A DNA stretch of 64,000 nucleotides, taken from the NCBI RefSeq assembly GCF_035594765.1, contig NC_085845.1, positions 197,424,897 to 197,488,896 on the forward strand. Reading direction: 5' to 3'. This document shows positions 15,592 to 18,500 of this stretch, piece after piece (the stretch's first letter is position 1; each line of letters opens with the position of its first letter). The position numbers and the translations under genes are program-made. A model generated the notes under the pieces. It saw nothing but the letters and a program-made list of their open reading frames with translations, had not been told where the DNA came from and made no database searches. The DNA comes from Anolis carolinensis (taxonomy: Eukaryota).

Positions 15592-18500
15592 TTATATAGG
15601 GAGGTCGTTCGGACACGTGGTATTTTCTTCAGCAGCATCATTCCACTCCTCATTCTTGTAGGTTGAAAGGAATAGGTTCTCTAGTTGTGCCAGGAATTCT
15701 TCAGCAATGAAGCTATTTGCTACACTGTCCAGGGTCTTCCTCATGCACTCCAGAAGCTAGTTTAACAGTGATGGACAGAAACAAAAAATAGTGATATTTA
15801 TAAAGAACACCTAACCGGCATCTATTCTGACTTCTTGAAATGTGGTAAATCATTGTTGAATTATTTAATGAAATGATGTCAACTGCTGCATTCTATTTAT
15901 ATCTACATCTATCTATCCATCCCGTCTAGTTCAGTTAGTCATAACAACTCCAATTCCCCCTCCTTTCTGTCTTAACCTTCTTTAGCTTCCTTAGTAAAAA
16001 ATTCCATCCCACCCTTTTGTTTTTCTTATTGAATTATTTCAACAAATTAAATTTAGAACAGGTTAGCAGGCATAGACAAACTTTGGCCCTCCAGGTGTTT
16101 TGGACTTCAACTCCCACAATTTCTAACAGCCTACCGGAATCCTACTGTTTTCTGAGTGTTGTTGTTTCTTTACTGTCCTGATTTTAGAGATTTTTAAATA
16201 CTGGTTGCCAGATTTTGTTTATTTTCATGGTTTCCTCCTTTCTGTTGAAATTGTCTTCATGCTTGTGGATTTCAATGGCTTCTCAGTGTAGTCTGACATG
16301 GTGGTTGTTAGAGAGGAATTCCAGACAAAAAACAAAATCTGGCAACCAGTATTTTAAAAAACTCTAAAATCAGGACAGTAAATAACAAACAACACTCAGA
16401 AAACACGGGAATTCCAGACAGGAAACTATCAGAGCCAGCTAACATCTTCCAACAAAGGATCCCCCAGGCAGGAAGCAGCCAGGCTTTGAAGCTGCAATGC
16501 CATTCAATGCTAATCGAGGTAGCCAATTGCAACATTCATACTTGCCTCAAGCAGACAAGAGGTTCTTTCTCCCACCCTGGATATTCCACTGATATATTAG
16601 CCCCACTTGCCTAGTTTCCAATATACCTCACAACCTCTGAGGATGCCTGCCATAGATGTGGGCGAAACGTCAGGAGAGAATGCTTCTGGAACATGGCCAT
16701 ACAGCCCAGAAAACTCACAGCAACCCAAACAAAGCATAACCACTTTCTTTTTATACATTCTTCCAGCCCAGTTAGCCCATATTTAATTAACTGGATTTTA
16801 TTAAACTGAACTTCAACATTAATCTGATGATACTTCACTGGTTTCAATGGATGTAACCTAAATATGACTAAGTTCCAGTTCTATCCAACATTTCTATTGT
16901 TAACAAAGGTTTGGGGGATTTTCAAGTTAAGAAACAAAGAATGTGTTATGATTACCTTCTGCAGGCATGTCAGGTCTGAATCCCTATGGAAGATTTTGTC
17001 CATGGGCACACAGCTATTGAAAGAATTAAGTCAAAACCATATCAGATACATGGGACTAATAATTTAAATTTAGCTTATTAACCAATTGTAGAAATTAAGC
17101 AATCACGCACCTATGAGACAGCCTGTATTTCTCAATTATCCATCGAGTTTTTTCCAATACTAGTTCCCACTGAGGTTCCTCCAACATTTCTTGGACTTCA
17201 AACTTGTATGGCAGACCTGTAAGTCACACACACAAAGGAATCACGTTTAATACAATATACATGCTTTTTTCTTATGGAATGCATCACTTTATTTATAGAA
17301 ACAAATGTCTTAATCTTTGTCAAAAAGAAGATGCAACGAATACATATACATGGGAAGGAGAAAGGAAATGTATGCAGATCCCAAGCCCTAAATCAGGACA
17401 GGCAGCTTCAAAGGGTCAAAAAAGTCTCCCTGCAAAGACTCAATGCAGGATATGCCATTTTCTCCCAAAATCAGAAGGAATGAAACTAGAAAGTTCATTT
17501 CTGGTTTCAACCAACCTCTGCCTTTATTTTTAACTAAAATAAGATGTTTAGAGGCTGTGCTACTTTACTTGAAGGTATTTTGTGGCTTTTGGAGAGCAAT
17601 TCTCAATTACTAAAAACAAAAAATGTTTATATGTAGTGGTTGCTTGTTCCTCTTTAACTCTTACTTCCATTCTTGTAGTCAAATTACCACTTGAATAGGA
17701 GCATGCCCTTTTAAACATGCCAAGTCAAACAAATCTTCATTTCTAGACAAAATGGTGCCATATTTCGAAAGCAGAGAAAGGAGGCAAACCTCAGATTATA
17801 CCTTGCCTTTCCATCACCACAACACATTCAAATTACTAAAACATACATTTACAAATATCTGCACAGACATTTATTTTGGTTTCTTCACCAAAACGTTAAG
17901 CTTAAGGTCTGTAAAAACTCCCCATACATTTCCATGTTGTTGATATGTGCTATCAAGTTGCATCTGGTTTATGACAACTCAAAGACAGGAGTTTTTTTGG
18001 TAAAATTTCTTATTTTTCTGTTTTTAAATTGTAATTTAAATGAGCAGCAGATAAGGATGAAATAAATTCATAAATATCTTACGATAGGATCCATCAGAAC
18101 TTGTCTCATCACTGATTACCAGACAAGTAATCTGGGAATATGGAAGAGGGTTGTTTCGATTGTAAGGGCTTATGATCACCCCAACAAACGTTGATCCACC
18201 TCTTGAGAAATAGCTCTGACGGAGAAAAATATAAGTGGGAATTAAACAAAATTTCTGATAAATCCCCCAGCCCATGACTTAAAATGTCAATACATTATAT
18301 AATAGTCCAAGATCAATAAATGAGCTCTCACAGACACTACCTATTACGTTTTCTTCCCAAAAGTTCATAATGAAACCACCTAGCAATATAACAAGCCCTG
18401 CTCCCAAACATTACCTGGTATTTTGCCTGTGTGTCAATATCTCGTATTGAGGGATTAGGGTCAAAGGCAGGATGAGAGTGATACCAGCCAATGACGCTGA

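Follow-up and report, generated by a model that had tools for sequence, protein, structure and literature searches.

The question raised by this locus is whether a 41-nt hammerhead ribozyme motif that recurs seven times in the 64,000 nt of Anolis carolinensis DNA analysed here (in the following, the window) is at work where it lies, or is simply carried along with the mobile element that brought it there. We consider it highly probable that the motif is the hammerhead of the anole Poseidon Penelope-like element, and that seven truncated insertions of this element hold it as a silent and decaying passenger. With 16634-16674 as the 41-nt reference, a Hamming scan of both strands of the window returned distances of 0 at 16634 (+) and 52503 (−), 3 at 11263 (−) and 14556 (−), 4 at 19988 (+) and 23729 (−), and 10 at 9126 (+); every coordinate and strand that the initial annotation had given for the seven copies is thereby confirmed. 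The next-best position on either strand of the window stands at a distance of 18, no eighth copy of the 41-mer was found, and the list of seven is thus complete at that level. A descriptor comprising the core and stems I and II matches three window sites (16637 (+), 52540 (−) and 14593 (−)), as compared with a mean of 0.03 and a maximum of 1 expected by chance from 60 dinucleotide Markov simulations. The seven motif copies are far above chance.

The intact copy at 16634-16674 (+), located antisense in the last intron of MYSM1, consists of a stem I of 3 bp (16634-36/16672-74), the core CUGAGGA (16637-43) followed by one extra U, a stem II of 6 bp (16645-50/16658-63), two of them G-U, closed by a 7-nt loop, and the segments GAAA (16664-67) and ACGU (16667-70), the latter a palindrome, with no stem III; C17 in hammerhead nucleotide numbering falls on 16671. 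The second intact hammerhead (52503-52543 (−)) lies within an insertion at 52441-52840, and both copies have the core, stems and palindrome complete, just as had been claimed for them. Paired stems I and II, the G10.1-C11.1 pair and the extra nucleotide after A9 are present in both, and the descriptor passes three of the seven copies. The type I core (CUGANGA, GAAA, UH) is complete in four copies (16634, 52503, 14556, 23729) and changed in the other three, and the ACGU palindrome at positions 15.1-16.1 is perfect in 16634, 52503 and 19988, present in a wobble form in 11263, and broken in 9126, 14556 and 23729. Judged by this anatomy, the motif belongs to the minimal type-I hammerheads of Penelope-like elements, the ACGU palindrome taking the place of stem III, as the initial annotation had proposed. 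Canonical type I hammerheads, as represented in Rfam and in non-LTR retrozymes, have the catalytic core consensus in common with the window motif, which differs from them in the lack of an Rfam match, of tandem short units, of stem III, and of a visible contact between loops I and II. Rfam returned no hammerhead match in the whole window, and none at E ≤ 10 on 16560-16760. In place of the tandem short non-coding units, each with its own hammerhead, that characterize non-LTR retrozymes, the window holds solitary copies 1.9-28 kb apart, attached to pLTR or ORF remnants of the element.

A direct counterpart has been described in PAc, the Poseidon Penelope-like element of A. carolinensis (Poseidon_Ac), whose RNA template is printed in the Methods of Frangieh et al. 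2024 (PMC11167929), a paper available in part and the sole one found on Anolis and hammerhead ribozymes. By eye, all 41 of the 41 letters of the PAc hammerhead agree with 16634-16674 and 52503-52543. The PAc ORF begins at stem II, and the cut lies 26 nt after the start codon; this corresponds to C16671, 3' of which the cut had been predicted for the window copy. Start-codon overlap, cut site and tail are the same in PAc and in the window copies, and the N-terminal peptide of PAc is that of the 52503 copy in 26 of 28 residues (PMC11167929). Six of the seven window copies differ from PAc in that they belong to a sister subfamily with other flanks, and all seven are truncated. According to the available text of the same publication, the PAc hammerhead shows conservation among several species of Anolis, the genomic tail is tied to two internal RT start sites (111-118 is given), and a template must include at least the first 172 nt of the ORF to support extension, a limit mapped for extension rather than for cleavage (PMC11167929). 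It should be noted that the ribozyme is hence already known down to the sequence, and so are the place of the cut, the overlap with the start codon, and the dependence on protein.

The manner in which the window copies are joined to this element was read from tblastn comparisons with an A. carolinensis element protein. ATG 16643-45, which overlaps the 16634 motif, is the start of the element ORF, and residue 1 of the protein falls on the motif ATG in all seven copies, followed in each of them by residues 1-28 or 1-39. Each copy therefore runs 28-39 codons into the following ORF before it ends, which is the pLTR arrangement of Penelope-like elements. The insertion with the 16634 copy (16149-16728 (+)) comprises an inverted piece (16149-16310 (−)) that codes for the end of the endonuclease domain and a pLTR (16313-16728 (+)) that ends at about +85 of the ORF start. 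The longest copy (11181-12245 (−)) holds an RT-thumb/GIY-YIG remnant (12245 to about 11574), a pLTR, the hammerhead 11263-11303 and a tail. Hammerhead 14556-14596 belongs to an insertion at 14476-14799 (−) with a tail and an inverted partial copy (14719-14799 (+)), and hammerhead 23729-23769 to one at 23675-23910 (−) with an inverted tail piece (23863-23910 (+)). Two short copies with tails lie at 9091-9248 (+) (hammerhead 9126-9166) and 19970-20110 (+) (hammerhead 19988-20028); the latter is flanked by a 9-bp direct repeat, a possible target-site duplication. Inverted pieces thus accompany three of the seven insertions (14556, 16634, 23729), and element-derived sequence amounts to 2,897 of the 64,000 bases in nine segments.

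The remnant in 11181-12245 has 56% identity to amino acids 551-799 of an 836-residue A. carolinensis element protein (tblastn, E 1e-67), and its closest relatives are Anolis RT-bearing proteins. The initial annotation had spoken of a GIY-YIG ORF on the same strand as the motif; the strand (minus) is correct, but the endonuclease remnant is a pseudogene fragment, interrupted by stops and frameshifts and with a short repeat within its GVY..YIG motif. For the combination of RT with GIY-YIG as the C-terminal domain in one ORF, the window offers just a decayed C-terminal third, which matches an RT-bearing protein with GVY..YIG. Pfam returned nothing on two frames (X at stops) of 11565-12245 and no GIY-YIG match for the full-length protein either, so that the GIY-YIG name of the endonuclease rests on the GVY..YIG motif and on PMC11167929. 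As an observation apart, an AKAP7 isoform annotated in A. carolinensis (protein P0010) terminates with some 130 residues from the Poseidon endonuclease, representing either an exonisation or an annotation artefact.

The 3' ends of the copies fall into two classes, at about +85 (three of seven) and at about +115 with a tail of approximately 31 nt (four of seven). Tails of 30-40 bp, like inverted partner copies truncated at the 5' end, are optional features of Penelope/Poseidon elements. The peptide downstream of the 52503 copy (..HSPKDIQQP) is of the PAc type, whereas the other six read ..YSPENSQQP or near it; since the upstream sequence of the 52503 copy likewise differs from that of the other six, two subfamilies share the identical 41 nt. 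An intact element ORF is found in none of the seven copies. Among the nine pieces with an element 3' end (the seven copies and two inverted fragments), none starts at the hammerhead cut, which fits RNA templates that had either remained uncut or been re-ligated.

What has happened to the motif after insertion can be read from its changes. G8 and G12 are catalytic hammerhead nucleotides; G12>A is found in 11263-11303, together with C15.2>T, and G8>A in 19988-20028 as well as in the heavily decayed 9126-9166, which additionally has A15.1>G and broken stems. Hammerhead 14556-14596 retains its core, carries C11.1>T, and has its palindrome broken by G16.2>A, while 23729-23769 also retains its core and is mismatched in stem II, stem I and palindrome. 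Hence, five of the seven copies are damaged in core, stem or palindrome and two are intact; the five that had been listed as variants are to be taken as damaged, not as functional, versions of the motif. The columns of the two CpG dinucleotides are changed in 9 of 28 cells versus 41 of 623 elsewhere (p=1e-4; seven copies), and the core is changed in 4 of 84 cells (4.8%) versus 46 of 567 elsewhere (8.1%; p=0.38), a comparison of seven copies whose power is low enough for a real difference to be missed. CpG-biased change without significant sparing of the core is the pattern expected of methylated, unselected insertions, and the decay looks neutral. The initial annotation had deduced a very large ribozyme load from about one motif per 9 kb. 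High genomic numbers of such motifs were already reported in 2014 (about 4,000 in coelacanth and 9,000 in Xenopus; PMC4209133, available in part), and the available text on a green anole population set gives 16,208 Penelope insertions (PMC7561263). The figure per 9 kb rests on one window. A functional load finds no support, since just two of seven copies are intact, neither of them is sense in a mapped gene, the decay is CpG-driven and the core is not significantly spared; the "load" is mostly decayed sequence.

In the elements from which such insertions derive, the hammerhead appears to be maintained. An alignment of ten element proteins led to 80 metagenome loci, the best 80 of 524, to which all counts in this paragraph refer. 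The descriptor found 17 hammerheads in 14 of these 80 loci, 11 sense and 6 antisense, versus none in 10 one-strand shuffles; core-only matches numbered 45, the 17 with both stems among them, versus none with stems and a mean of 4.6 core-only matches in 20 shuffles. As to position, the estimated ORF start is reached by four sense matches or lies no more than 220 nt from them, and another seven are found between −43 and +854 relative to the estimated end. Features that the descriptor does not demand recur: by eye, and with some loci being near-duplicates, the extra nucleotide is present in 17 of 17, G10.1-C11.1 in 16 of 17, and in 13 of 17 the 15-16 segment is complementary to itself (three via G-U). 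For covariation, the window copy was aligned with 13 of the 17 matches, four near-duplicates being left out; across these 14 sequences both partners vary in five of the six pairs of stem II and 95% of cells are paired, a result that is partly circular as the descriptor demands pairing. The excess over shuffles and the recurrence of undemanded features indicate that the motif is under selection in the master elements. We rejected the idea that A9-U-G10.1 serves as a general start codon of Penelope-like ORFs, as an ATG is found there in 5 of the 11 sense matches; each of the five ATG-bearing loci (L010, L013, L017, L049, L065) meets a stop within about 35 codons, for which decay or introns are possible causes. 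Two loci have opposite-strand hammerhead pairs 180-240 nt apart at element ends (L010:2725 and 2906; L065:4228 and 4466), an inverted arrangement of the kind described in the available part of PMC4209133. A viral contig collection contained neither a match to the motif nor a protein relative.

Four of the copies lie in or behind one host gene. MYSM1 (13115-31597 (−)) has coding exons from 31597 to about 15595 as located by tblastn, and a likely 3' UTR that reaches about 13115 with an AATAAA at 13131; one of its exons is 93-94% identical to proteins of A. sagrei and 85% to those of A. carolinensis. The 16634 and 19988 copies are antisense in its introns, the 23729 copy is sense in an intron, and the 14556 copy is sense about 1 kb past the stop codon and upstream of AATAAA at 13986, 13708 and 13131. 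Unique contigs from runs presumed to be RNA (4 of 18 runs) cover most of 15756-13115 on both sides of the 14556 copy, and none of those listed bridges the repeat. Because of its position past the stop codon, upstream of AATAAA and between such contigs, the 14476-14799 insertion likely sits in sense orientation in the MYSM1 3' UTR. Contig stops at 14519 were considered as cleavage ends and rejected, as they fall within the repeat, 40 nt away from where the cut is predicted (14559); the contigs from these runs are mostly repeat-derived pieces and unsuited to showing RNA ends. Neither intact copy is sense in a mapped gene: 52503 lies about 1 kb upstream of the first exon of a DCP1-family gene (53372-63718 (+)), on the opposite strand. 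As to further neighbours, exons of an LRR protein that we take to be CEP78 are found at 6077-9595 (−), the 9126 copy beginning just past its apparent first coding exon in antisense orientation, and exons of a claudin-like protein at 42311-42697 (−).

Could the dispersed copies be active nevertheless? The initial annotation had pointed to cleavage as dimers. In the model that Cervera and de la Pena put forward in 2014 for the minimal hammerheads (min-HHR) of metazoan Penelope-like elements (PMC4209133), pairing through ACGU would let two copies cut one another with no protein involved, within tandem transcripts of the element and possibly between dispersed copies. The swapped dimer is free of mismatches for the two intact copies, yet these lie 36 kb apart on opposite strands, and both copies that are sense in MYSM1 (14556, 23729) belong to those with broken palindromes, against the three of seven in which it is perfect. 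Folding predictions put the swapped double hammerhead at −15.5 kcal/mol, 16 kcal/mol above the dimer MFE of −31.6, and the hammerhead monomer at −7.5 versus an MFE of −13.7 kcal/mol; the MFE structure of the 41-mer includes stem II and lacks stem I, the stem II probability with flanks is predicted at 0.2 (16634), 0.0 (52503) and 0.0 (14556), and the motif does not stand out by its MFE (z −1.55 to +0.36). As nearest-neighbour energies leave out tertiary contacts and Mg2+, the active fold is understated; the mispaired hairpin predicted over the active fold, in monomer and dimer alike, would fit a need for protein help. The frequency of the self-complementary segment in the related matches (13 of 17 within the best 80 of 524 loci), which the descriptor leaves free, speaks for dimer cleavage, and so does a low cleavage of Schistosoma dimeric and trimeric constructs in vitro, dimer action having been tested, in the part of PMC4209133 available, on Schistosoma and Drosophila motifs. 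The window motif differs from min-HHRs in that its stem I has just 3 bp and its stem II of 6 bp includes two G-U pairs, and Anolis is unnamed in the available main text and keyword-searched supplement of that paper. Against it stands the motif with identical letters: in the accessible sections of PMC11167929, PAc RNA cleaves only with the element protein and stays uncut without it at 500 nM RNA and 5 mM Mg2+, although a tandem dimer construct is not described there. Dimer cleavage as the working mode thus finds no support, and we regard it as unlikely.

In another reading, expression of the element protein leads to cleavage in trans of the dispersed copies that host transcripts contain, and sense copies thereby harm or regulate genes such as MYSM1. 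The 14556 copy retains its whole core and is likely sense in the MYSM1 3' UTR, but some 80 bp of it are predicted to pair with its inverted partner (−147.6 kcal/mol, z −11) with a stem II probability of 0, so that this damaged copy would be masked by the inverted repeat, and contigs from runs presumed to be RNA are found on both sides of it. The predicted hairpin of about 80 bp in 14476-14799 (−) is a candidate double-stranded RNA or editing site. Both MYSM1 sense copies are damaged and the intact one is antisense, as purging would give, although four copies in one gene are too few for an orientation bias; the available text of PMC11167929 moreover reports A. carolinensis RNA-seq in which no reads start or terminate at the PAc cut. 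We therefore hold cutting in trans to be very improbable. The motif might instead be kept as code for the first ten residues of the element protein, its ribozyme activity being incidental. From A9 onward the sequence is all coding, but C3 to G8 precede the AUG, and C3G or G8C abolishes PAc cleavage, with partial rescue by the double change; catalytic mutants still extend normally in vitro, which makes cleavage dispensable for reverse transcription there (PMC11167929, in its available part). Craig et al. 2021, in the part available, regard hammerhead function as unclear, with some clades devoid of the motif and Naiad elements proliferating without canonical hammerheads (PMC8557442). Against a purely coding role, the fold is preserved in related elements in which the motif is out of frame with the ORF, five of the six pairs of stem II showing compensatory changes, an argument that is partly circular and drawn from the best 80 of 524 loci. 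A coding explanation accordingly appears improbable to us, somewhat more so than dimer cleavage and less so than cutting in trans. None of the three is fully exclusive of the passenger reading.

If the motif is indeed a passenger, its dispersal would follow from the place at which copying begins. We infer that RT begins immediately downstream of the hammerhead, at about 85 or 115 nt of the following ORF in a tandem transcript, +85 as a second RT start site being our own proposal; almost every 5'-truncated insertion would then gain a copy of the motif, from RNA left uncut there. In an active master element, protein binding would likely refold the RNA from the stable mispaired hairpin into the active fold. 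Judging from its position, the cut would separate the AUG from the ORF, and might be a late processing event or a self-limiting step. The dispersed copies are without a partner, hold 85-116 nt of the ORF versus the 172 nt of the minimal extension template (PMC11167929, in its available part), and are mostly antisense or mutated; for these reasons they likely do not cut. The window is in this sense a small natural record that fits the published work, with every motif-bearing copy crossing the cut, two classes of ends and neutral-looking decay. The abundance of the family in anoles would allow the role of the hammerhead in a living element to be assessed by a genome-wide count of orientation and conservation. 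In a far-reaching extension, to which we assign very little probability, dispersed intact Poseidon hammerheads would be protein-gated cut sites in host RNAs, anoles would purge or mask the sense copies, as is hinted at by the copy in the likely 3' UTR of MYSM1, damaged and locked in its hairpin, and removal of the start codon would act as a negative feedback; if dispersed copies could be activated in trans, the cleavage of host RNA would be under the control of a retrotransposon protein, which would be new.

Other repeats accompany the Poseidon insertions in the window. An uninterrupted frame of 690 amino acids with an RVT_1 domain (E 3e-35) at 55620-57692 (+), presumably CR1-like, has fragments of its family at about 30370-30717, 54086-54391 and 57907-58494. 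A MITE-like family of approximately 300 bp with short terminal inverted repeats is abundant in both orientations (3197-3496, 10858-11175, 22633-22968, 30759-31075, 32487-33174, 33536-33707, 51063-51376, 52959-53275), and one member abuts the tail of the 11181 Poseidon copy. Dispersed hairpin repeats at 501-583, 13417-13497, 20628-20769, 31243-31324, 42167-42248 and 44200-44278 match Rfam mir-5408 below its gathering score; instead of microRNA genes, they probably represent a small transposon with inverted repeats. At 41367-41745 and 51567-52478 lie tandem repeats, whose units measure about 54 nt and about 149 nt.
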